A DNA stretch of 64,000 nt from Nitriliruptorales bacterium (lineage in GTDB: Bacteria; Actinomycetota; Nitriliruptoria; Nitriliruptorales; JAHWKO01), in assembly GCA_046263195.1 (NCBI GenBank), contig JBHELG010000040.1, positions 1,186 through 65,185 on the forward strand, given 5' to 3'. The notes beneath the pieces are model-generated. The model ran no database searches, was not told the origin of the DNA, and worked only from the letters and a program-made list of their open reading frames with translations. This document shows, one piece after another, positions 1,633 to 53,692 of the stretch. The first letter of the stretch is position 1. The number at the start of each line of letters is the position of its first letter. A program made the position numbers and the translations under genes.

Positions 1633-2598
1633 GTGACGGTCGCGATCGTATTCCCTGGGCAAGGGGCTCACCGCGATGGCATGGCGAGCGCATGGCGCAG
1701 CCACCGCGCATATGCGACGTTTGCCGAGGTCGGACGCCTTTGCGGTATCTCCGACCTCGCCCGTCTCGCGGACGATCCGAGCGCCTGCGCGGCCACCGCC
1801 GTAGCGCAACCCGCGGTCTTCGCAGCCAGTATCGCCGCCTGGCGTGCCCTCGGCGACGTCGGCATCGAACCCAGCGCCGTCGCCGGCCACAGCCTGGGAG
1901 AGGTCACCGCTGCAGTCGCCGCCGGTTCTCTCTCCCTGCAAGACGGAGCCGTCCTCGTGGCCGAACGGGGGCGGGCATTCGCCGCCGCTTGTAGGCGCAA
2001 CCCTGGCACCATGGCGGCGGTCCTCGGTCTCGACCGAGCAGCGGTCGAGGAAGCGACCGGGGACATGGCGGACGTGACGGTCGCCAACGACAACGCGCCC
2101 GGTCAACTCGTCATTGCCGGGCCCCCGGAAGCCGTCGACGGCGCCGCCGAAGCGTGCCGCGCCGCCGGGGGTCGAGTACGGCTGCTCGACGTCGAGGGGG
2201 CCTTCCACACGCCAGCCATGACGCCAGCCGTCGTTCGTGTCGCCGCCGTCCTCCGCCGCCTCGCAGTGACCGACCCCGAGGTCCAACTCGTGCGGGGGGC
2301 TTCCGCTGATGTCGCAGCGACCGCAGCGGAAGTGAGACGCGGGATCGTGGACGGGGTACTAGCGCCCGTGAGGTGGCGAGAGGTGCAGTACCGGCTGGTC
2401 GATCTCGGCGCGGAGACGATCATAGAAGCCGGATCCGGGGTTCTGCGCGGCCTCTCGCGACGGACGGTGCCCGACCTGCCCAGCTTCTCGGCCGACAGTC
2501 CCGAAGCAGTGCGTCAGGTGGCCGCGAAGCTCATGCTGGATGGGCGCCCCCTTGCTCGGCGTGAGGAAGCGCTACTCGAGGAGGTGCACGCTCGATGA
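1633..2598 (+). CDS. fabD: malonyl-CoA:ACP transacylase
   Basis: GHSLGE nucleophile motif (AGHSLGEVTAAVAAG), 321 aa, first gene of the fab operon. Confidence 0.92.
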   Translation: MTVAIVFPGQGAHRDGMASAWRSHRAYATFAEVGRLCGISDLARLADDPSACAATAVAQPAVFAASIAAWRALGDVGIEPSAVAGHSLGEVTAAVAAGSLSLQDGAVLVAERGRAFAAACRRNPGTMAAVLGLDRAAVEEATGDMADVTVANDNAPGQLVIAGPPEAVDGAAEACRAAGGRVRLLDVEGAFHTPAMTPAVVRVAAVLRRLAVTDPEVQLVRGASADVAATAAEVRRGIVDGVLAPVRWREVQYRLVDLGAETIIEAGSGVLRGLSRRTVPDLPSFSADSPEAVRQVAAKLMLDGRPLARREEALLEEVHAR

Positions 2599-2825
2599 TC
2601 GCAATCCCCGCTTGCGTCGTCTGCGTCGCCCCGGCCGACGGCCGCGCCCGCGCGCTCGTCGAGCGCGGCACACCGGTCGAGGCGGGCCAGGTAGTCGCGA
2701 TCGTTGACACTCCGGGTCACTCCGCTCCCGTGCGGGCGCCTGTCTTCGGACAGGTCGGGGGCGCCCTCACCGGCCGCGGTCAGACCGTGAGCCGGGGAGA
2801 GGCGCTGGTGTGGCTGCTCCGCTGA
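2595..2825 (+). CDS. small biotinyl/lipoyl (hybrid-motif) domain protein lacking the modifiable lysine
   Basis: 76 aa. ATG overlaps the fabD stop (ATGA) and the 3' end overlaps the fabH GTG by 16 nt. The sequence matches the BCCP pattern (V.AP..G......G..V..GQ..AIV[EAMKM]...V.AP..G.V......G..V..GE.L), but DTPGH replaces EAMKM and the protein contains no Lys at all. Confidence 0.55.
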   Translation: MIAIPACVVCVAPADGRARALVERGTPVEAGQVVAIVDTPGHSAPVRAPVFGQVGGALTGRGQTVSRGEALVWLLR

Positions 2826-3865
2826 CCTTTGCCACCGCGCTCGATGGGCCAGCCATCGCGTCGGTGCCGGGTGCCCTCGCCGTGGCCGTAACCGGCCTTG
2901 GTGTGTCATTGCCGGAGGAGATCGTCACCAACGCGGACTGGGCGTCCCGACTCGATACGTCCGACGAGTGGATCGTGACGCGTACGGGCATCCACGAACG
3001 TCGACGTGCGGCGCCTCACGAAGCCACCTCTGACCTCGCAACCAGTGCCGCGTCAGCCGCGCTCGCCGACGCCGGAATGGACGGCGGCGACGTCGGCGCC
3101 ATCGTGCTCGCCACGACGACTCCCGACCACGTCATTCCGCAGACAGCGCCCGTCGTGGCCGCCCGTCTCGGGCTCGAGGTCCCGGCCTTCGACATCGGCG
3201 CAGGCTGCTCGGGCTTCGTATACGGCCTGGCGGTCGCTGCCAGCCTGGCCATGACCGGTCTCGCCCGCCCCGTCCTGCTCGTCGGGGCGGAGACGTTGAC
3301 GCGCGTGATCGATCCGTCCGACCGTCAGACGGCAGTGCTGTTCGGCGATGGCGCGGGCGCGTGCGTGCTCACGGCCTGCAGCGAGAGCGTCTGGGGCAGC
3401 GTCGGGCCCTTCGATCTCGGATCGGATGGCACCCAGGCCGATGCACTCGTCGTCCCGGCTGGAGGAGCTCGCACGCCCGCCACGCCCGAAACGGTCGCGG
3501 CCAACCGTCATGTCCTGCTCATGCGGGGACGCGAGGTGTACCGCCACGCCGTCACCCGTATGAGCGCGTCCGCATCGAGCGTCCTGCAACGCGCGGGGAT
3601 GGGGGCAGGAGACGTCGACCTGCTCGTGGGGCACCAGGCCAACGCGCGCATCCTCGATGCGGTGGCTCAGCGGCTCGGGATTCGTGACGAGCAGGCCTTC
3701 GTCTGTGTCGAGCGCTACGGCAACACCTCTGCTGCGTCCATCCCCATTGCGCTCGACGAGGCCCGGGCGGCAGGCCGCTTGCAACCCGGTACGCGGGTTT
3801 TGTTGACAGCGTTCGGGGCCGGCTTGACGTGGGGTTCCTGTCTGTTGACCTGGCCTGGCACATGA
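2810..3865 (+). CDS. fabH: 3-oxoacyl-ACP synthase III
   Basis: TSDEWIVTRTGI, active-site Cys context GAGCSGFVYGL, GHQANARI, GNTSAASIP. GTG start at 2810. Confidence 0.9.
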   Translation: MAAPLTFATALDGPAIASVPGALAVAVTGLGVSLPEEIVTNADWASRLDTSDEWIVTRTGIHERRRAAPHEATSDLATSAASAALADAGMDGGDVGAIVLATTTPDHVIPQTAPVVAARLGLEVPAFDIGAGCSGFVYGLAVAASLAMTGLARPVLLVGAETLTRVIDPSDRQTAVLFGDGAGACVLTACSESVWGSVGPFDLGSDGTQADALVVPAGGARTPATPETVAANRHVLLMRGREVYRHAVTRMSASASSVLQRAGMGAGDVDLLVGHQANARILDAVAQRLGIRDEQAFVCVERYGNTSAASIPIALDEARAAGRLQPGTRVLLTAFGAGLTWGSCLLTWPGT

Positions 3866-4587
3866 GCGACCTCGTCGCCCTCGTCACCGGCGGCAGCGGC
3901 GGTATCGGAGCTGCCACCTGCCGTGCGCTGTCCGCCGCCGGCATGGCCGTGCTCGTTGGCTACGGCAGGGCCCACCAGACCGCAGCGGAGGTCGCCCGGT
4001 CGTGCGCGGGACCCGCCGAGGCCGTCGCATGCGACGTGACCGCTCCCGACCAGGTGCGGGGAGCGGTCGAACGGGCCGGGGAGTTCGGCCGTCTTCATGT
4101 GCTCGTCCACGCGGCAGGCATCGCCGATGACGACCTCCTACTGCGACTCGAACCGCACCGTTGGGATCGCACCATCGAGGTGAACCTGCGTGGCGCCTAC
4201 CTCGCCTGTCGGGCGGCGCTGCGCCCGATGCTACGAGCCCGCTGCGGCCGCATCGTGCTCGTCACGTCGGTCGTGGGGCTTCGGGGCAACGCCGGTCAGA
4301 CGGCATACGGTGCTGCGAAAGCCGGTCTCATAGGCCTGGCGAAATCTCTCGCTCGCGAGGTCGCCCGTAAGGGCATCACCGTGAACGCGGTGGCGCCTGG
4401 CTATGTCGAGACACCCATGACCGCGGGGATCCCGGACGAGGTGCGTGCCCGCCACGTCGAGGAGTCCCCACTCGGTCGGGCGGTCACGGCCGTGGAAGTC
4501 GCAGCAGCCATCCGGTTTCTGACCTCGGACGAGGCGGCGCCGATCACCGGCGCCGTGCTTCCAGTGGACGGCGGTACCACCATCTGA
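3862..4587 (+). CDS. fabG: 3-oxoacyl-ACP reductase (SDR)
   Basis: TGGSGGIG Rossmann motif and YGAAKAG (YxxxK). ATG 3862 overlaps the fabH stop (ATGA). The longer ORF start at 3829 is unlikely. Confidence 0.88.
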   Translation: MSDLVALVTGGSGGIGAATCRALSAAGMAVLVGYGRAHQTAAEVARSCAGPAEAVACDVTAPDQVRGAVERAGEFGRLHVLVHAAGIADDDLLLRLEPHRWDRTIEVNLRGAYLACRAALRPMLRARCGRIVLVTSVVGLRGNAGQTAYGAAKAGLIGLAKSLAREVARKGITVNAVAPGYVETPMTAGIPDEVRARHVEESPLGRAVTAVEVAAAIRFLTSDEAAPITGAVLPVDGGTTI

Positions 4588-4598
4588 AAGGAGAAGCC

Positions 4599-4844
4599 AT
4601 GGACCAGAACATCTACGCCAACGTCGAGCGCATTCTCACGGGCACCTTCCAGGTACCTGCCGACGAAGTCTCACCGGACGCCACCTTCGAGTCGCTCGAA
4701 CTCGACTCGCTCGACCTCGTCGAACTCACGCTCGCGGTCGAGGAGGAGCTCGGCGTGAAGATCGAGGACGAGGAGATGGAGCAGATCCGTACCGTGCGGG
4801 ACTCGGTGGACCTCATCGCAGCGAAGTCCGGGGTCTCGGCGTGA
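4599..4844 (+). CDS. acpP: acyl carrier protein
   Basis: 81 aa and acidic. LDSLDLVEL contains the DSL phosphopantetheine-attachment serine. A GGAG-type SD (aaggagaa) lies upstream. Confidence 0.93.
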   Translation: MDQNIYANVERILTGTFQVPADEVSPDATFESLELDSLDLVELTLAVEEELGVKIEDEEMEQIRTVRDSVDLIAAKSGVSA

Positions 4845-6076
4845 GGGACGGGATCGTCGTCACCGGCGTCGGGCTCGTGACGCCGGCTGGGCGCGGCACC
4901 CAGGAGTCGTGGGCGGGGGTGCTCGCAGGTCAACCCGCGGCGGGGCCCGATCCCGAACTGGAGGCTGCCGGGATTCCGGTCACGATCTCGTGTCGGGTTC
5001 CCGCCTTCGACGCCGACGCCGAGCTTGGCCGGGGCGCCTCGAGGCGCCTCGACCGTTACGTCCACCTCGCGCTCCTGGCGGGACGTGAGGCGGTCGATTC
5101 GGCCGGGCTGAAGCTCGGCCCCGAGGCCGACCCTGAGCTGACCGGGCGAGTCGGCGTCGTGCTGGGCTGCGGCATCGGAGGGGTGATCTCCTGGGAGGAG
5201 CAGCATGCGAGCTTCCTCCAGCGCGGACGGGTCAGCCCACTGCTCATCCCGAAGATGCTGTCGAACATGGCTCCGGGCCAGCTCGCCATCGAGTTCGGCA
5301 CACGCGGCCCCAACTTCGCGGTGAACACCGCCTGCGCCGCGGGAGCAACCGCTCTTCACGTCGCACGCGATTTACTGCGCTCAGGTACCGCCGACATCAT
5401 GCTCGCGGGCGGGATCGAAGCCGGAATCACGCCCCTGTCGGCTGCGGCGTTCGCCCAGATGGGCGCGCTGTCCCGCCGCAACGACCGCACCGCTTCCCGG
5501 CCCTTCGACGCGGAGCGTGACGGCTTCGTGCTGGGAGAAGGGGCTGGGGTGCTCGTACTGGAGCGTGCTGCAGACGCGCACGCACGGGCGGCTGTGCCGC
5601 TCGCCGTCTTCGCCGGCGCAGGCTCCTCCGCTGACGCCCACCATCAGACCGCCCCGCCTGAAGATGGCGCGGGAGCGGTGCTTGCGATGGCCCGGGCTCT
5701 CGCCGACGCGGGTCTCGAGCCTGGCGACGTCGACCACGTGAACGCTCACGGCACCTCCACTCCTCTCAACGACCGCGCCGAGGCGCTGGCGGTGCGCAAG
5801 GTGTTCGGGTCGGCGGCAGATCGGCTCACGGTTGCCTCCACGAAGGGTGTGACCGGGCACCTGCTCGGCGCAGCGGGCGGGGTCGAGGCCGCCTTCGCGG
5901 TGCTCGCCATCCGTGAAGGAGTCGTGCCTCCGACGGCGAACCTCACCCGCCTGGACGAGGCGGTGGACCTCGACGTCGTCCAGGGCAAGGCGCGCCGCCA
6001 GCAGATACAGGTGGCGCTCAGCAACTCGTTCGGTTTCGGCGGACAGAACGAGGCGCTGCTCTTCGCCGCCGCCTGA
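4841..6076 (+). CDS. fabF: 3-oxoacyl-ACP synthase II (KAS I/II)
   Basis: NTACAAGATALH (active-site Cys), NAHGTSTPLND, GHLLGAAGG, NSFGFGGQN. The GTG start overlaps the acpP stop. Confidence 0.92.
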   Translation: MRDGIVVTGVGLVTPAGRGTQESWAGVLAGQPAAGPDPELEAAGIPVTISCRVPAFDADAELGRGASRRLDRYVHLALLAGREAVDSAGLKLGPEADPELTGRVGVVLGCGIGGVISWEEQHASFLQRGRVSPLLIPKMLSNMAPGQLAIEFGTRGPNFAVNTACAAGATALHVARDLLRSGTADIMLAGGIEAGITPLSAAAFAQMGALSRRNDRTASRPFDAERDGFVLGEGAGVLVLERAADAHARAAVPLAVFAGAGSSADAHHQTAPPEDGAGAVLAMARALADAGLEPGDVDHVNAHGTSTPLNDRAEALAVRKVFGSAADRLTVASTKGVTGHLLGAAGGVEAAFAVLAIREGVVPPTANLTRLDEAVDLDVVQGKARRQQIQVALSNSFGFGGQNEALLFAAA

Positions 6077-6101: not shown

Positions 6102-7583
6102 GTGTCGAACCCGATCACCGCAGAGATACCCGGCGTGAACCCGACAGACCTGCGACCGGGGGACGGGGCTCGGGCCCGCATCGACCTGCTCGTGGACTCC
6201 GACAGCTTCCTCGAGCTCGGCTCCGCTCGTCATCACCGGGCGACCGGCTTCGGCCTCGAACAGCGCCACCCCGAGGGAGACGGAGTCGTTTCAGGTACCG
6301 CGACAATCGGGGGTCGCGCCGCTTACGTCTATGCGCAGGATCGCGGCGTCCTTGGTGGCTCCCTCGGAGAGGCTCACGCGGACAAGATCGCACGCACCAT
6401 TGCCACCGCAGCCCGGAGCGGCGCCCCCGTGATAGGCGTTCACGACTCCGGTGGTGCCCGTATCCAGGAGGGGGTTGCTGCCCTCGACGGCTACGGCCAG
6501 GTGTTCCACGCAAATGTCCGCGCCTCCGGACGGGTTCCCCAGATCGCGCTCGTCCTCGGGCCATGCGCGGGCGGGGCCGTGTATTCGCCGGCGCTCATGG
6601 ACTTCGTGGTCATGCGCCAGGATGCGTACATGTTCCTCACCGGACCCCGGGTCGTGAAGGCGGTCACGTACGAGGACGTTGACGCCCTCACTCTCGGGGG
6701 GCCGGTCGTCCATGCCGAACGGAGCGGCTGCGCCCATTTCGTGGCTGATGACGACGTTGCGGCTTTTGCACTCGTACGGGAGCTGCTGTCCTACCTCCCC
6801 AGCTCCTGTCACGAGCCGCCACCGTCGCTGCCAGCCGAGGACCCCGCGGAGGTCAGACTCGATGCAGTCGTGCCGTCCGATCGCCGCCAGCCCTACGACG
6901 TGCGGGAAGTCGTGCGTGGCCTCGTCGACGCCGGTCGATTCCTAGAGGTGCAGGAGGGCTGGGCGCGCAGTCTCGTCGTCGGCTTCGCCCGCCTCGATGG
7001 TCATACCGTGGGGATCGTCGCCAACCAGGCCTCCTGGCTCGCAGGCTGCCTCGACCTCCAAGCGAGCGAGAAGGGCGCCCGCTTCGTACGCTTCTGCGAC
7101 GCCTTCGGGGTGCCGATCGTCGTGCTCGTCGACGTTCCCGGCTTCCTGCCGGGCACCGCTCAGGAGTCCGGCGGGATCATCCGCAAAGGCGCGAAGTTGC
7201 TCCACGCCTTTGCGTCCGCAACGGTCCCAAGGGTCACAGTCGTGCTGCGCAAAGCCTTCGGTGGCGCCTACATCGTGATGAACTCACGCGCGCTCGGCGC
7301 AGACGCCGTCCTCGCCTGGCCGGGCTGCGAGCTGGCGGTCATGGGAGCGGAGGGTGCCGTGGACGTCATCTTTCGCCGTCAAGTGGAGAAGGACCCGTCG
7401 ACCCGGGAGCAACTCGCGGAGCGCTACCGGGACGGTGCCATGGACGTCGTCCTAGCCGCTCAGAGGGGCAGCGTCGACGAGATCATCGCACCCGACGAGA
7501 CCCGTCCCGCCCTCGTCGCACTCCTGCGCGGGCTGCGGGGCACGCGCCGGCCCGGCTTCGTCCACGACAACCTGCCACAGTAA
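6102..7583 (+). CDS. acyl-CoA carboxylase beta subunit (carboxyltransferase), accD6/pccB-like
   Basis: 493 aa with two carboxyltransferase halves (SGGARIQEG; LGPCAGGAVYSPALMDF; KAFGGAYIVM). It occupies the same operon position as accD6 in the mycobacterial fabD-acpM-kasA-kasB-accD6 operon (from memory). Confidence 0.88.
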   Translation: MSNPITAEIPGVNPTDLRPGDGARARIDLLVDSDSFLELGSARHHRATGFGLEQRHPEGDGVVSGTATIGGRAAYVYAQDRGVLGGSLGEAHADKIARTIATAARSGAPVIGVHDSGGARIQEGVAALDGYGQVFHANVRASGRVPQIALVLGPCAGGAVYSPALMDFVVMRQDAYMFLTGPRVVKAVTYEDVDALTLGGPVVHAERSGCAHFVADDDVAAFALVRELLSYLPSSCHEPPPSLPAEDPAEVRLDAVVPSDRRQPYDVREVVRGLVDAGRFLEVQEGWARSLVVGFARLDGHTVGIVANQASWLAGCLDLQASEKGARFVRFCDAFGVPIVVLVDVPGFLPGTAQESGGIIRKGAKLLHAFASATVPRVTVVLRKAFGGAYIVMNSRALGADAVLAWPGCELAVMGAEGAVDVIFRRQVEKDPSTREQLAERYRDGAMDVVLAAQRGSVDEIIAPDETRPALVALLRGLRGTRRPGFVHDNLPQ

Positions 7584-7587
7584 TGCC

Positions 7588-7938
7588 ATGAGAGCCGGAG
7601 TCGATGTCGTGGCGGTGGAGCGGGTCTCTGCCCTCCTCGCCCGCCGACGGGGCTTCCTGGAACGCGTCTTCACCGACAGGGAGGTCGCCGACAGCCTCAG
7701 AGGGGGCGTGTCCCTGTCTTCGTCGACGGCGGCAGCTCGGCTCGCGGCACGTTTCGCCGCGAAGGAGGCGGCGCGCAAAGCCCTCGACACCGCGCTCGGC
7801 TGGCGTGAGGTCGAGGTGCGCACGTCAGGCGACGGGGCTCCGGTCCTGTGGGTACGAGGGGCGCCGGCCCCCGCCAGCCTCTCGCTTGCCCATGACGGCG
7901 GCATCGCCGTGGCGTTCGTCGTGAACCAGGAGGGCTGA
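7588..7938 (+). CDS. acpS: holo-ACP synthase (4'-phosphopantetheinyl transferase)
   Basis: 116 aa: GVDVVAVERV, FAAKEAARKAL, LSLAHDGGIAVAFV. Confidence 0.88.
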   Translation: MRAGVDVVAVERVSALLARRRGFLERVFTDREVADSLRGGVSLSSSTAAARLAARFAAKEAARKALDTALGWREVEVRTSGDGAPVLWVRGAPAPASLSLAHDGGIAVAFVVNQEG

Positions 7939-7942
7939 ACGC

Positions 7943-8725
7943 GTGCTGCTCGAAGGCAAGCGCCTGCTCGTGACCGGGGTGTTCGATCCCCGTTCAATCG
8001 CCTTCCACGTGGCCCGTCTTGCCCAGGAACAGGGAGCCCAGGTGGTCCTCACCGGCTTCGGCAAGGCACGGCGGACCACCGAGCGCTCGGCGCAGCGCCT
8101 GCCGTACCCCCCGGACGTGCTCGAGCTCGACGTCACGGAGCCGAGCCATATCGCGGCCGTCGCGAAGGAACTTGATGCCCGCTGGGGTGTGCTCGACGGG
8201 TTGGTCCATGCGGTCGCCTACGCCCCGTCCTCCTGCCTTGGAGGCGGGTTCCTTCGTGCCCCTTGGCAGGATGTCGCCACGGTTTTTCACGTGTCCACGT
8301 ACTCCCTGGCTGCGCTCAGCGCCGGGCTCGCGCCACTGCTGCGGTCTCGGGGGGGCGGCGCGATAGTCGGGCTGGACTTCGATGCCAGCGTGGCCTGGCC
8401 CTCCTACGACTGGATGGGGGTCGCGAAGGCCGGACTCGAGTCCTGCGCGCGTTACCTCGCTCGTGATCTTGGGCCTGACGGGGTGAGGGTCAACCTCGTC
8501 GCTGCGGGCCCGCTCCACACCTTGTCGGCCCGTGGCATCGACGGTTTCGAGCGTTTCGAGGAAGTGTGGGCCGCCCGGGCGCCGCTCGGGTGGGACGCAC
8601 GCGACCCTCAGCCCGTGGCACGGGCGGTGTGCATGCTCCTGTCGGACTGGGCGAAAGGGATCAGCGGCGAGGTCGTTCATGTGGACGGCGGGGCGCACGC
8701 CATGGGGGCCAGCATCAGAGGCTGA
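7943..8725 (+). CDS. fabI: enoyl-ACP reductase (NADH), FabI/InhA type
   Basis: 260 aa SDR. LLEGKRLLVTGV N-terminus and Y-x6-K catalytic pair in SYDWMGVAKAGLES. Confidence 0.88.
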   Translation: MLLEGKRLLVTGVFDPRSIAFHVARLAQEQGAQVVLTGFGKARRTTERSAQRLPYPPDVLELDVTEPSHIAAVAKELDARWGVLDGLVHAVAYAPSSCLGGGFLRAPWQDVATVFHVSTYSLAALSAGLAPLLRSRGGGAIVGLDFDASVAWPSYDWMGVAKAGLESCARYLARDLGPDGVRVNLVAAGPLHTLSARGIDGFERFEEVWAARAPLGWDARDPQPVARAVCMLLSDWAKGISGEVVHVDGGAHAMGASIRG

Positions 8726-50004: not shown

Positions 50005-51356
50005 AGTTGCTCCTTTGCTGCCGGGCTCGATCGCCGTGAAGCACCTTGCATGGCGGGGCGTGAGGTGTCGGCGAGGGTCTGCTCGCGGTCATCTGCAACG
50101 GCCTCAGACGCCGGCCGGGCTGGATGGGCCAGGCCGCCGCTGCGATCGAGGCGCGGGTCGAACGCCACCTTCACCGTGCCGAGCGAGCCGGAGTGGAGCG
50201 CGTGGTCGACCGCCTCTCTCCAGCGAGCGAGGGGGTAGGTGGCACCAACCAGCCTTCCGAGGTCGTGCTCGGCTGCGAGCTCGAGAGCGTCGGCGAATGC
50301 TCCACTGCCCGAGTAGGAGCCGATGACCTCGAGTTCACGCAGCCAGGCCGGTGACAGGTCTACGCCGGCGGGCATGCCGGCGAGCACGACCTTTCCCTGC
50401 GCTCGGGTGACCCGCAAGCACAGGTCGAGCGCGCTCGGCGAGCCCACGCAGTCAAAACTCACGTCGACCCCTCCCAGCAGGAAGGGCCTCGAGCGCTCCG
50501 GCTCGCAGCGAAAGGCGGCCGTGGCGCGACGTACCGCACCCAGCGCCTCGCCTGGACTGGTTACCGCGGAGGCGCCCAGCTGACGCGCCAGGTCGGCTTG
50601 GAAGCGATGCTTGGCAACGACCGTTATGCGGCTCGTCGTCGCCTGCTTGCGCAGCGCGATGAGCGTGAGCAGGCCGACCGTTCCGGCACCCACTACGAGG
50701 GCGTCATCCTCATCGGCAACCGCGGCGCGTCTCACGGCTCGCAGCGCGCACGCCATGGGCTCCACCATGACTGCCGTCTCGTCGCTCAAGTCGTCGCTGA
50801 CGGGGTGCAGCTGAGAGGGGTGGGCGATGAGGAGCTCGGACCAGCCCCCGTCCGTGTCATGGCAGTAGCCACTCTGGAGGCCCGCGCTCACGTCACCTGC
50901 GGTCAGTCGTTCGCACAGTCCCGGCTCACCCACGGCGCACATCTCACAGGGCGGCTGGATGCCCCGCACCGTGCAGCCGAGGACGGGGTCGAGAACGACC
51001 CTCTGCCCTGTGGACAGGGCCGGCGAGGTCGCAGGATGGGACGCTGGCGGATCGTCGAGGTGGACGTCGTCGAGCAGTTCACCGACGACTTCATGACCCG
51101 GCACGAACGGCAGCGAAACAAGCGGCGAGAAGTAGAAGCTCGCACTTCCCATGAGTGTGTTCAGATCAGAGCCGCAGATTCCGGACAGACTGGGGCGGAC
51201 ACGGACCCAGCCGTTGCCGTTCGGAGACCTGACCTCCCGGTCGACGAGACGCAGCGGCGCGATTGGACCCGCCGCAACCCTCCGCAACCGCCCGGAGAGC
51301 GTCCTGGCTGCCAGGTAACGGGGGATCGAGCGGTAGAACTCGAGGCAGAGCGTCAT
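50001..51356 (-). CDS. zinc-binding medium-chain dehydrogenase/reductase (MDR) with C-terminal extension
   Basis: GICGSDL, PGHEVVGE, structural-Zn Cys cluster (CEMCAVGEPGLC), and Rossmann VVGAGTVGLL. Confidence 0.82.
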   Translation of the reverse strand: MTLCLEFYRSIPRYLAARTLSGRLRRVAAGPIAPLRLVDREVRSPNGNGWVRVRPSLSGICGSDLNTLMGSASFYFSPLVSLPFVPGHEVVGELLDDVHLDDPPASHPATSPALSTGQRVVLDPVLGCTVRGIQPPCEMCAVGEPGLCERLTAGDVSAGLQSGYCHDTDGGWSELLIAHPSQLHPVSDDLSDETAVMVEPMACALRAVRRAAVADEDDALVVGAGTVGLLTLIALRKQATTSRITVVAKHRFQADLARQLGASAVTSPGEALGAVRRATAAFRCEPERSRPFLLGGVDVSFDCVGSPSALDLCLRVTRAQGKVVLAGMPAGVDLSPAWLRELEVIGSYSGSGAFADALELAAEHDLGRLVGATYPLARWREAVDHALHSGSLGTVKVAFDPRLDRSGGLAHPARPASEAVADDREQTLADTSRPAMQGASRRSSPAAKEQL

Positions 51357-53692
51357 GGCCCCGACCCGGAACGGAAGCCAGCAAGAGGGCCGCCATCGCC
51401 GATCGCCTGGCCGGCGGAGCGTTCTCCAGCGTCATCGAGGCCAGAGACCAGGGAGCCCGGCAGCCCGATCCTGGGGATTCCTGCCTCAGCCGGCCACTCC
51501 TCCACGGGCCAGTGGCGGGTCCGAGCAACCCGGTTGAGGGCTACCTCGGGATTGACGGCGACCGGGAATCCGACCGCCTCGAGCAGGGGCAGGTCGCTGA
51601 GGGAGTCCGCGTAGGCGTAGGACGCGGAGAGATCGGCCCCGCTTTCGCGGGCGTAGTCCCGTAGCCAGGAGGCGCGTGCCTCGCCCACCAGTGGAGGGCG
51701 GGTGAGATCGCCGGTAAGCCTGCCGTTGTCCTCCCGAAGACGAGCGCTCACCACCTCGTCGGCCAGTGCGGCGATCGGTTCGACGATGAAGTCGAGGGCA
51801 CCGGTGATGAACACGACACGGTGTCCTGCACGGCGATGGGCGCGGATGCGTCGAGCGGCCGCGGGAGAAAGACGACGCAGGACCAGGTCGCCGAGGGTGG
51901 CGCGAGCCAGCGAACGGACCGCGTCCGCGTCGGCGCCCTCGTAGCCGCGGTAGAAGAGGCGCAGGAACTCCCCTCGGTCGTACCGCTCGGCCTGCAGCAG
52001 ACGTGGCAGCCGAACGCCGGAACGGGCGAGCACCATCGCCCGCGCGGACCTGTCACCGCTGTCAGCGAGCCGAAGCCACAGGTAGGCCTCGACAACGTTC
52101 GAGTCGACGATGGTCCCCTCCACGTCGAAGACGGCGAGGATCGGGGGGGCGTCGGGACGCCGCGCCGGTAAGACCACCCGCGGCTCGGGACGAGCCGGAG
52201 GCGGCTGCCGCAGGAGTGCGGTGATCGCAGGCAGATGCACATTGATGAGGTAGTGCTGCCAGGTGAACGACGTCGAGTCGAAGCCGAAGTCGCTGCGGTC
52301 CGCGGGAGACATGGAGTCATGGAGGGCTTTCGCCCGATCGTCCGTGTAGATGACCTCCGCCTCGGCGTACGGGCCGTAGAGATCGGAGTAACGCCGGGCG
52401 AAGTCGATGCGTTGACGCAGTCCATGCATGCGGAGCGAACTCTCTCGCGCGAAGCGGCCGCGAGGCAGTCTTTCCACCAGCCTCTCAGCAGCGCCGAGTG
52501 CCCGTTCAGCAGTACGAAGTCGGCGCTCGACGATGCGACGGCCTGGAAAGCGCCATTCGGGCACCCGATAGGTGCCACGTCCCCATTCAGGCAGAGGCTT
52601 GTCGAGGAAGTAGGCGCGTGTGTGCTGGTAGATATACCGGAACTGAAGTGGGTTTCGGTTGCCCGAGCAGAGGTGGTAGACGCTGGGGCGGGCAGAGACC
52701 GCGCCGTTGGCAGTGCGCAGGTTCGCGGCGATGGCGATGCAACCGTTCACGACGAGATCGACCGGGATGAGGTCGATCACGCCTTCGGGGATGGCGGGGA
52801 ACTCCGGCAGAGCGCCACGCCCGTAGCCGAGCATGACCGGGTCCGCCATTCGGAAGCCGGAGATCCAACCCGGGTAAGGGTGGCTGAGAGCGCTCTCGAT
52901 TATGGACGGCCTCACAATCGCGATGGGGCCGTCGGCTGCGGTCTCGCCGAGGGCGACCTCGGTCAGCGCCTTCGTGAAGGTGTACACGTCTGGCCAGCCG
53001 ACGCTGCGAGCCCTCGCCCGCCCCGCTGCCACTTCGCGTTGGCGAACCCACTGGCGGCGTAGCTCCTCCGCACGCCGGGCGGCGGACTGTGGACCAGCCT
53101 TACCGATCTCGTGCTCAGCTCGGCGATGGAGACGCTCGAGCACCTCCGGCCGACGCGAAGCCGCCTCGACATCGTCACGGATGCGGGCGGCGGCGGCAGC
53201 TTCCTTGCGCCAGTCCACGCCGAGCTCGAGGGCCTCCTCATGCTGGGTGCCACGCGTGACGCCGGCCACGTAGGCCGTCGAGACGTGAACGAAGGGCCGG
53301 TGGGCGGCGGCCTGCCGCAGCCTGAGCGTCCCGTGGAGGTTCGTGTCGAAGGCTTCGTCGACGGGGGGATCGAACGAGACGGTGGCCGCTGCGTGGATGA
53401 CAAGGTCGACGTCCTCCGGAACGGTCACGTTCTGGAGGTCACCCGGGATTGGCCGCAGCTTGCTCGCCGCGAGCTCCGCTAGGCCGTCCGGGCCGAGACG
53501 CTTGCGGGCGGGGCGGAACGCGGGGCTGGCGAGCAGCTCACGCGTGCGAGCCTCGGGATCGCCGCGGATGAGCAGGTCGAGCCGCTCGAGCGGAACGTCG
53601 AGGAGAAGCCGCTCGAGCAGCGCGGTGCCGAGAAACCCGGTCGCACCCGTGAGCAGGATCCGCGCTCCCGCCAGCGACTCCCGGACCTCCAT
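51353..53692 (-). CDS. fusion protein: fatty acyl-CoA/ACP reductase-type NAD(P) domain + HAD-IB hydrolase domain
   Basis: N-terminal half: ILLTGATGFLGTALLERLL, VHVSTAYV, YTFTK (YxxxK), matching the NAD_binding_4 / male-sterility type. C-terminal half: ILAVFDVEGTIVDSN (motif I, with DVE in place of DxD), then YADSLSDLPLLEAVGFPVAVNP (HAD-IB motif IV). Confidence 0.8.
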   Translation of the reverse strand: MEVRESLAGARILLTGATGFLGTALLERLLLDVPLERLDLLIRGDPEARTRELLASPAFRPARKRLGPDGLAELAASKLRPIPGDLQNVTVPEDVDLVIHAAATVSFDPPVDEAFDTNLHGTLRLRQAAAHRPFVHVSTAYVAGVTRGTQHEEALELGVDWRKEAAAAARIRDDVEAASRRPEVLERLHRRAEHEIGKAGPQSAARRAEELRRQWVRQREVAAGRARARSVGWPDVYTFTKALTEVALGETAADGPIAIVRPSIIESALSHPYPGWISGFRMADPVMLGYGRGALPEFPAIPEGVIDLIPVDLVVNGCIAIAANLRTANGAVSARPSVYHLCSGNRNPLQFRYIYQHTRAYFLDKPLPEWGRGTYRVPEWRFPGRRIVERRLRTAERALGAAERLVERLPRGRFARESSLRMHGLRQRIDFARRYSDLYGPYAEAEVIYTDDRAKALHDSMSPADRSDFGFDSTSFTWQHYLINVHLPAITALLRQPPPARPEPRVVLPARRPDAPPILAVFDVEGTIVDSNVVEAYLWLRLADSGDRSARAMVLARSGVRLPRLLQAERYDRGEFLRLFYRGYEGADADAVRSLARATLGDLVLRRLSPAAARRIRAHRRAGHRVVFITGALDFIVEPIAALADEVVSARLREDNGRLTGDLTRPPLVGEARASWLRDYARESGADLSASYAYADSLSDLPLLEAVGFPVAVNPEVALNRVARTRHWPVEEWPAEAGIPRIGLPGSLVSGLDDAGERSAGQAIGDGGPLAGFRSGSGP

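Follow-up and report, generated by a model that had tools for sequence, protein, structure and literature searches.

A conserved lysine-less biotinyl-type domain encoded between fabD and fabH in type II fatty-acid synthesis operons

The DNA analysed here, referred to as the window, is a 64,000-nt stretch of contig JBHELG010000040.1 from a Nitriliruptorales metagenome-assembled genome (MAG). Between the type II fatty-acid synthesis (FAS-II) genes fabD and fabH it carries a short open reading frame (ORF), and we use X as a working name for the product of this ORF and for its homologues. We found that X is a real, conserved protein-coding gene. Structure modelling indicates that the protein has the flattened eight-stranded beta-barrel (barrel-sandwich hybrid) fold of biotinyl and lipoyl domains. 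At the same time, to judge from its sequence, X is not a functional carrier of the type of the biotin carboxyl carrier protein (BCCP), the E2 lipoyl domain or GcvH; the modifiable lysine of the beta4-beta5 hairpin is missing.

2595-2825, + strand: gene X, ORF of 76 AA, ATG at 2595, TGA at 2823-2825 (NCBI MFN2556018.1)

The translation of X, MIAIPACVVCVAPADGRARALVERGTPVEAGQVVAIVDTPGHSAPVRAPVFGQVGGALTGRGQTVSRGEALVWLLR, contains zero lysines. An earlier note on this DNA had given the same coordinates and the same Lys-free 76-AA product, and both were confirmed by the sequence and the ORF list. In the public NCBI record the protein is labelled "biotin/lipoyl-containing protein".

X was accepted as a gene because of its Pfam match, its coding-type GC pattern, its low ratio of nonsynonymous to synonymous substitution (dN/dS) and the emptiness of the overlapping ORFs. 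The protein matches Pfam PF00364 (Biotin_lipoyl) with 30.2 bits (gathering score 22.1, E = 4e-7), and the GC content at its three codon positions (0.80/0.58/0.83) follows the pattern of the neighbouring genes. Pairwise dN/dS values among five orthologues are 0.06-0.38, in line with the earlier proposal that Ka/Ks should lie below 1, and 0.06-0.35 once the codons overlapping fabD and fabH are dropped; for comparison, fabD and fabH of the same contigs gave 0.18-0.23 and 0.15-0.41, respectively. ORFs overlapping X in other frames and on the other strand had no significant Pfam match (best E = 0.31), and coding on the opposite strand was rejected on these grounds.

ORFs of 76 codons are frequent by chance in DNA of 68-74% GC, and the ORF list of the window holds dozens of spurious ORFs of a size similar to that of X. 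X could be such a chance frame, or a decaying BCCP pseudogene that merely spaces or couples the translation of fabD and fabH, and the position of the fabH Shine-Dalgarno sequence, within X, would suit a spacer. We consider this very improbable. Besides the Pfam match over the cut-off and the coding-type GC pattern, the dN/dS of X is far below 1 and equal to that of the flanking enzymes, also without the overlap codons. A profile search of a 5.8-billion-protein set recovered 399 or more clusters (90% identity), and among the best 120 nearly all are 76-77 AA long. Nine positions are invariant across a 114-sequence alignment of the family (Pro5, Val28, Gly31, Val34, Gly52, Gly56, Leu58, Gly68 and Trp73), with Arg17 and Arg53 nearly so, the fold is predicted with very high confidence, and the family is kept in differing gene contexts. 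Selection and the breadth of conservation thus contradict both a spurious ORF and a mere spacer.

The number of relatives recovered varied with the search. A word-based search gave six close homologues, an exhaustive profile search about 20 full-length cluster representatives of 74-82 AA, and a scan of contigs with a narrow X-family alignment (A1) one close MAG; tblastn with the family consensus found no match on plasmids. No dedicated Pfam or NCBIfam model exists for the family. PF00364 is reached at E ≤ 1e-3 by only 48 of the 114 members, and 23 of them give weak matches to NF004547. In the source databases, members carry no label or are called "hypothetical protein" (Egicoccus halophilus), "biotin carboxyl carrier protein" or "predicted deacylase".

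With a sequence profile built from X and its relatives, the best solved matches were BCCP domains: the transcarboxylase 1.3S subunit came first (E = 2.5e-10), the Pyrococcus horikoshii BCCP and mycobacterial AccA3 ranked after it, and the BCCP of methylmalonyl-CoA decarboxylase was matched at E ~1e-6. An AlphaFold2 model made from the 114-sequence family alignment is all-beta with a predicted local distance difference test score (pLDDT) of 96.3. In Foldseek it superposes on BCCP biotinyl domains (e.g. 1BDO, 2EJF, 5GUA) with a TM-score of ~0.8 and a root-mean-square deviation of 1.1-1.5 Å, and domains from mycobacterial acyl-CoA carboxylases are among these matches. The top Foldseek match by E-value is BesA (4KKT), an adaptor with a Lys-less lipoyl-like domain. 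The BCCP/lipoyl hybrid motif recognized in the earlier note is therefore borne out by the Biotin_lipoyl profile and by the predicted flattened beta-barrel. Biotin_lipoyl_2 stayed below its cut-off (13.3 vs. 29.8), as did HlyD_3 (14.4 vs. 22.2), and X as a fragment of a membrane fusion protein was rejected.

The 76-AA domain is the entire protein: there is no N-terminal, linker or fused part that would tether it to biotin carboxylase, and no signal peptide, coiled coil or catalytic domain. X is a thumb-less biotinyl-type domain and nothing more.

In the alignment, V-D-T-P-G-H of X falls on L-E-A-M-K-M of BCCP, so that the hairpin reads D38-T-P-G-H42 where BCCP has EAMKM and Gly41 takes the place of the biotinyl lysine. 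The replacement of EAMKM by DTPGH had been noted before and is upheld by this alignment. As the hairpin is without a modifiable lysine, X would be unable to carry biotin or lipoate on the canonical residue, and a true BCCP was ruled out. We further carried out a lysine census of 133 family members of 72-80 AA. Lysine was found at the carrier column in none of them; arginine (68) and glycine (43) prevail, the remainder being alanine or serine, and the commonest hairpin is (D/E)APRG. No lysine occurs anywhere in 122 of the 133 proteins, and the total is 11 observed vs. ~143 expected. Yet, the absence of lysine from the whole protein is weak evidence in this organism because its proteome is Lys-poor: lysine makes up 1.4% of residues over 18 genes of the window, FabH (351 AA) has none and FabD one, and the chance of a Lys-free 76-mer at this content is 0.34. 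The claim that X cannot be biotinylated or lipoylated for want of lysine stands as far as the hairpin is concerned, but the lysine-free protein had been given too much weight. What is meaningful is the loss at the hairpin together with the depletion across the family, not zero lysine in X alone.

Cys7 is replaced by phenylalanine in about a third of the family members. A lysine in or beside the hairpin was seen rarely, as GGKGRAD (L020, 1191-1508) and VDTKGH (P0003, K40). Related sequences have Arg, Pro or Gln at this position and no flanking Met, and these cases look like Arg/Lys drift, not a retained biotinylation site.

In the window, X belongs to an operon with the following features:

1447-1550, + strand: putative promoter/operator region of the operon, with two copies of the 18-bp palindrome GACRYTGACGTCARYGTC
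1633-2598, + strand: fabD, malonyl-CoA:acyl carrier protein (ACP) transacylase, 321 AA (Pfam Acyl_transf_1, TIGR00128)
2580-2598, + strand: fabD-X coupling, GGAGG at 2580-2584 in the last fabD codons, 10 nt upstream, and ATGA start/stop overlap at 2595-2598
2796-2825, + strand: X-fabH coupling, GGAGAGG at 2796-2802, fabH GTG at 2810, 16-nt overlap with the end of X
2810-3865, + strand: fabH (beta-ketoacyl-ACP synthase III, KAS III), 351 AA (NF006829 and TIGR00747 above cut-offs), start GTG 2810 or, less likely, GTG 2864
3862-4587, + strand: fabG (ORF, Pfam families in orthologous loci, NCBI name)
4599-4844, + strand: acpP (same basis as fabG)
4841-6076, + strand: fabF (same basis as fabG)
6102-7583, + strand: AccD6-type acyl-CoA carboxylase beta subunit (carboxyltransferase, CT), 493 AA
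7588-7938, + strand: acpS (ORF, orthologous loci)
7943-8725, + strand: fabI/inhA-type enoyl reductase, the last operon gene (ORF, orthologous loci)

The overlaps of X with the fabD stop (ATGA) and with the fabH GTG, as well as an accD6-like gene in the same operon, had been claimed before and were all found, the overlaps being accompanied by the GGAGG and GGAGAGG sites. The fabD-X layout recurs in loci L001, L003, L004 and L005, with GTGA as the overlap in L004 and L005 and a GAGGTG-type Shine-Dalgarno sequence ahead of X in L003 and L004. The GGAGAGG ahead of fabH falls within the codons of the conserved R-G-E-A of X, and gene calls in relatives place the fabH start within or abutting X. Since FabH profiles begin to match only at about residue 24 of the GTG 2810 reading, GTG 2864 is a formal alternative start. 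GTG 2810, however, has a Shine-Dalgarno sequence, overlaps X and adds ~18 residues ahead of the conserved FabH core, and no obvious Shine-Dalgarno sequence precedes GTG 2864. In L004 and L005 FabH homology starts right at the stop of X, so an overlapping fabH start is needed there.

No terminator-like site was found between 1250 and 9400 of the window. X stands 3.3 kb upstream of CT and is coupled to fabD and fabH instead. As read from this arrangement, X is co-transcribed and translationally coupled with the genes for CT, for FabD, which loads malonyl groups on ACP, and for FabH, which performs the first condensation.

The gene content of these operons varies in minor ways. A PlsC-type acyltransferase gene lies between CT and acpS in Egicoccus and the L010-L012 lineage (L008 13165-13902; L010 13078-13812); the window operon lacks it and passes from CT directly to acpS (7583-7588). 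The window operon also has no dehydratase gene. In subgroup ii, defined below, a FabA/ApeI-like dehydratase gene is divergent from fabD (L013 415-897 and L015 7317-7745, both on the - strand). Elsewhere in the window, at 51353-53692 (- strand), a 779-AA ORF joins a fatty acyl-CoA reductase ("male sterility" NAD_binding_4 and Sterile domains) to a C-terminal haloacid dehalogenase (HAD) hydrolase domain; this fusion is unusual and may be linked to fatty alcohol or wax metabolism.

All readable loci of the 76-AA family (L001-L012, among them that of the complete Egicoccus halophilus genome, CP036250) have X between fabD and fabH. The exhaustive search also found longer (86-145 AA) Lys-less proteins that share the core motifs of X: VAPxxGRFR, G.V.G, SPF.G.LMG.LA and G(Q/E)P(V/I)AWL. 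By hhalign these are homologous to the 76-AA family (probability 99%, E = 4e-18), and a second profile search for the longer forms gave 136 further clusters. Profile comparison thus places the 76-AA family as one branch of a wider Lys-less superfamily, which we divided into the 76-AA family (subgroup i) and the longer forms (subgroups ii, iii and iv):

Subgroup i (window, L001-L012): fabD-X-fabH-fabG-acpP-fabF-CT-(plsC)-acpS-fabI, on contigs that are long enough
Subgroup ii (P0033, P0226; L013, L015): fabD-X-fabH-fabG-acpP-fabF-CT-fabI
Subgroup iii ("GGRGRAD"): X leads X-fabH-acpP-fabF-CT operons, with no fabD upstream
Subgroup iii, L016 and L017: X-CT bicistron with no FAS gene nearby
Subgroup iv (P0231, "LPPRRF"; L018): fabD-X-fabH-fabG-acpP-fabF, operon without CT

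With 68-74% GC and operons organised as in the window and Egicoccus, the DNA of subgroups ii-iv appears to come from Actinomycetota as well. CT is present in the X operon of the window, Egicoccus, L010-L012, L015, L024, L027 and L028. In the bicistrons, X and CT overlap by 4 nt (GTGA) in L016 and are separated by a 9-nt gap in L017, and the L016 CT, directly coupled to its X homologue, is 60% identical to the CT of the window. With few exceptions, the stop codon of X runs into or directly adjoins the start of the gene that follows (ATGA or GTGA), be it fabH or CT. The predicted structure of the CT-coupled P0283 shows the same beta sandwich (residues 41-113, pLDDT ~97) behind ~40 N-terminal residues that form a tail lacking predicted secondary structure (pLDDT 62-80); here too, carboxylase BCCP domains are the closest structural matches.

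The hairpin tip differs by subgroup (DTPGH, EAPRG, EGPGxS, GGRGRAD); Arg17 and Trp73 are the residues that mark the superfamily as a whole. If the layout of lipoyl domains applies, Arg17 would lie in the beta1-beta2 loop beside the hairpin, and Trp73 would be part of the C-terminal strand. A single metagenomic protein, P0060 (222 AA, known as protein sequence only), contains the C-terminal half of FabD and a Lys-less X domain in one chain and is an apparent fusion. Several X proteins of 88-110 AA are labelled "S-malonyltransferase" in IMG, which hints at fused FabD-X proteins in reference genomes.

The two palindrome copies upstream of fabD in the window lie at 1449-1466 and 1533-1550, where 0.08 copies would be expected by chance, and the first stands between a -35-like TTGACG and a -10-like TATGGT. 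The palindrome was also found in L001 (544-637), L003 (4751-4854), L008 (6875), L014 (1196), L016 (7988), L017 (3260), L020-L031 and L033. It sits just upstream of fabD or of X in distant lineages (two branches), the X-CT bicistrons included. The mycobacterial MabR site is TTTTGT-N9-ACAAAA (PMC5541348); the palindrome does not match it and was rejected as a MabR operator. It is probably the operator of some FAS-II regulator.

Comparison with known systems places X closest to the BCCP biotinyl domains of PF00364 (1DCZ/1O78, the 1.3S subunit of P. shermanii; 2D5D; mycobacterial AccA3, 9YX1-5), which have the same flattened beta-barrel at 1.1-1.5 Å and share with X the AP-x-x-G and G-x-V-x-x-G structural motifs as well as the thumb-less type. 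Unlike them, X has the (A/V)MKM hairpin replaced and the carrier lysine gone, stands alone as 76 AA without a linker or a region binding biotin carboxylase (BC), and features the family-specific Arg17 and Arg53 and an invariant Trp73. By sequence and predicted fold X is a member of the PF00364 superfamily that fails the defining feature of a functional carrier.

The plant BADC (biotin attachment domain-containing) proteins are likewise derived from BCCP, devoid of the biotinyl lysine and tied to the committed step of fatty-acid synthesis. BADCs are reportedly full-length plastid BCCP paralogues that bind biotin carboxylase, in work attributed to Salie et al. 2016. X, in contrast, is a domain only, and bacterial; judged by architecture and lineage, it is of independent origin. 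Because X is without the BC-binding N-terminal part of BCCP and BADC, it can be at most a functional analogue of BADC. The suggestion of a bacterial BADC counterpart therefore holds for a Lys-less BCCP-like protein but not for its architecture, and a functional analogy, with competition with BCCP as the presumed action, is plausible.

The epsilon subunits (AccE/PccE/AccE5) of actinobacterial acyl-CoA carboxylases are small accessory proteins that modulate or assemble the complex, and their genes adjoin a CT beta-subunit gene and are translationally coupled with it (PMC13012033, PMC13118682, PMC4064979). The likeness of X to them goes no further than small size and, for the homologues in L016 and L017, coupling to a CT gene. 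Their sequence and fold are unrelated to X, which matched no epsilon-subunit family in Pfam (E ≤ 10) or NCBIfam (E ≤ 1), and unlike epsilon genes X lies upstream of CT or far from it, mostly adjoining fabH. B. subtilis BLAP/YngHB (1Z6H, matched by the X profile at E = 1.4e-4) and M. tuberculosis TB7.3 (NF004547) resemble X in consisting of a biotinyl/lipoyl domain of ~70 AA only, but they keep the lysine, are modified and are not encoded in FAS-II operons. Lys-less versions of the fold are found as well in the lipoyl-like domains of membrane fusion proteins (BesA, 4KKT) and in the C-terminal domains of AstE/AspA-type deacylases and CphZ, where, unlike in X, the fold is part of a larger protein with other functions. 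The AstE/AspA-type deacylases account for the "predicted deacylase" labels in IMG.

As to function, we tentatively favour, as a possibility falling short of a probable one, that X is a non-biotinylatable BCCP mimic docking on an AccD6-type acyl-CoA carboxylase and modulating the supply of malonyl-CoA. On this account X would be an expressed, non-catalytic protein in the shape of a BCCP domain that can no longer be biotinylated; it would dock where the BCCP domain docks on acyl-CoA carboxylase, most likely on the operon's AccD6-type CT, and so tune the production of malonyl-CoA for FAS-II. In the manner of plant BADC it could be a decoy that competes with the genuine biotinyl domain, or it could help to assemble or stabilise the complex in the manner of the actinobacterial epsilon subunit; both the partner and the sign of the effect (positive or negative) are what we infer. 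Docking on the carboxylase is proposed because the natural ligands of the fold are the CT and biotin-carboxylase active sites and two lineages keep X with CT alone. These two independent loci (L016, L017) and the palindrome common to FAS-II operons and X-CT pairs speak for it. In actinobacterial carboxylases, small accessory proteins (AccE and MSMEG_0435-0436) act on the interplay of BCCP and CT (PMC13012033), and plants use Lys-less BCCP paralogues.

Several observations weigh against a role at the carboxylase. The most constant neighbour of X is fabH, not CT: it follows directly in every locus with DNA beyond X, except L016 and L017. The L018 operon has no CT, P0060 resembles a FabD-X fusion, and X is without the N-terminal region by which BCCP and BADC bind biotin carboxylase. 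A simple active-site decoy is further disfavoured in that the hairpin, expected in the CT active site, is the part least conserved between subgroups, the superfamily-specific residues being Arg17 and Trp73 and not the hairpin tip. Much of this would fit X as an accessory subunit of the FAS-II initiation enzymes that binds FabH and/or FabD, either as a docking or regulatory module for the first condensation or as a bridge passing malonyl groups from CT to FabD to FabH. We hold this to be doubtful but worth serious attention, being only slightly less likely than a role at the carboxylase. In its favour, fabH is next downstream, usually with an ATGA/GTGA or 16-nt overlap, in subgroups i (window, L001-L012), ii (L013, L015) and iv (L018) as well as in subgroup iii loci L014, L020, L021 and L023-L030, subgroups i, ii and iv show coupling of X to the fabD stop, and the IMG "S-malonyltransferase" labels point in the same direction as P0060. 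Against it stand the X-CT bicistrons without fabH or fabD nearby and the lack of fabD upstream of X in most subgroup iii operons; the fusion is known from one metagenomic protein only, and we know of no FabH or FabD partner with a biotinyl fold, CT and BC being its natural ligands. If X bridged CT, FabD and FabH, the two sets of contexts could be reconciled, but this is more speculative.

That X instead carries or senses another cargo, by modification on another residue or by binding acyl-CoA or CoA at an Arg-rich tip, seems to us improbable. Arg17 is nearly invariant across the superfamily, about half of the 76-AA family has arginine where the lysine used to be, within the hairpin (D/E)APRG, and the rare lysines of P0003 (K40) and L020 (GGKGRAD) lie beside or in the hairpin. 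On the other hand, there is no conserved Cys, Ser or Lys to bear a group, Cys7 being among the replaced residues, the tip sequence changes from subgroup to subgroup, and to our knowledge a biotinyl fold binding CoA on its own has no precedent.

Taken one step further, bacteria may have evolved a BADC-like device independently. A Lys-less pseudo-carrier coupled with FabD, FabH and AccD6-type CT would dock on the carboxylase, and possibly on FabD or FabH, and match or channel malonyl-CoA to FAS-II initiation, under the control of a repressor at GACRYTGACGTCARYGTC; we rate this extended proposal as speculative and rather unlikely in full.

Public databases already list the X gene, though with a generic or incorrect label, and it is hence no discovery in itself. 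We searched the literature for bacterial BCCP-like proteins without lysine, and for such proteins in fabD-fabH operons, and found no description of the family. What appears to be new is a conserved Lys-less BCCP-like superfamily wired to the genes of FabD, FabH and AccD6-type CT in several lineages, and so do the X-CT bicistrons and the shared palindromic putative operator. Automatic annotation routinely misnames the gene "biotin carboxyl carrier protein", wrongly implying a complete acetyl-CoA carboxylase in these operons. The protein-level means by which bacteria adjust malonyl-CoA supply to FAS-II demand are only partly known, and a conserved pseudo-carrier tied to the initiation genes would, if true, count as a novel type of accessory factor. 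Convergent evolution with the BADC regulators of plants, themselves targets for oil-yield engineering, would then be a further implication, and with Egicoccus halophilus as a cultured member of the family the idea is testable.

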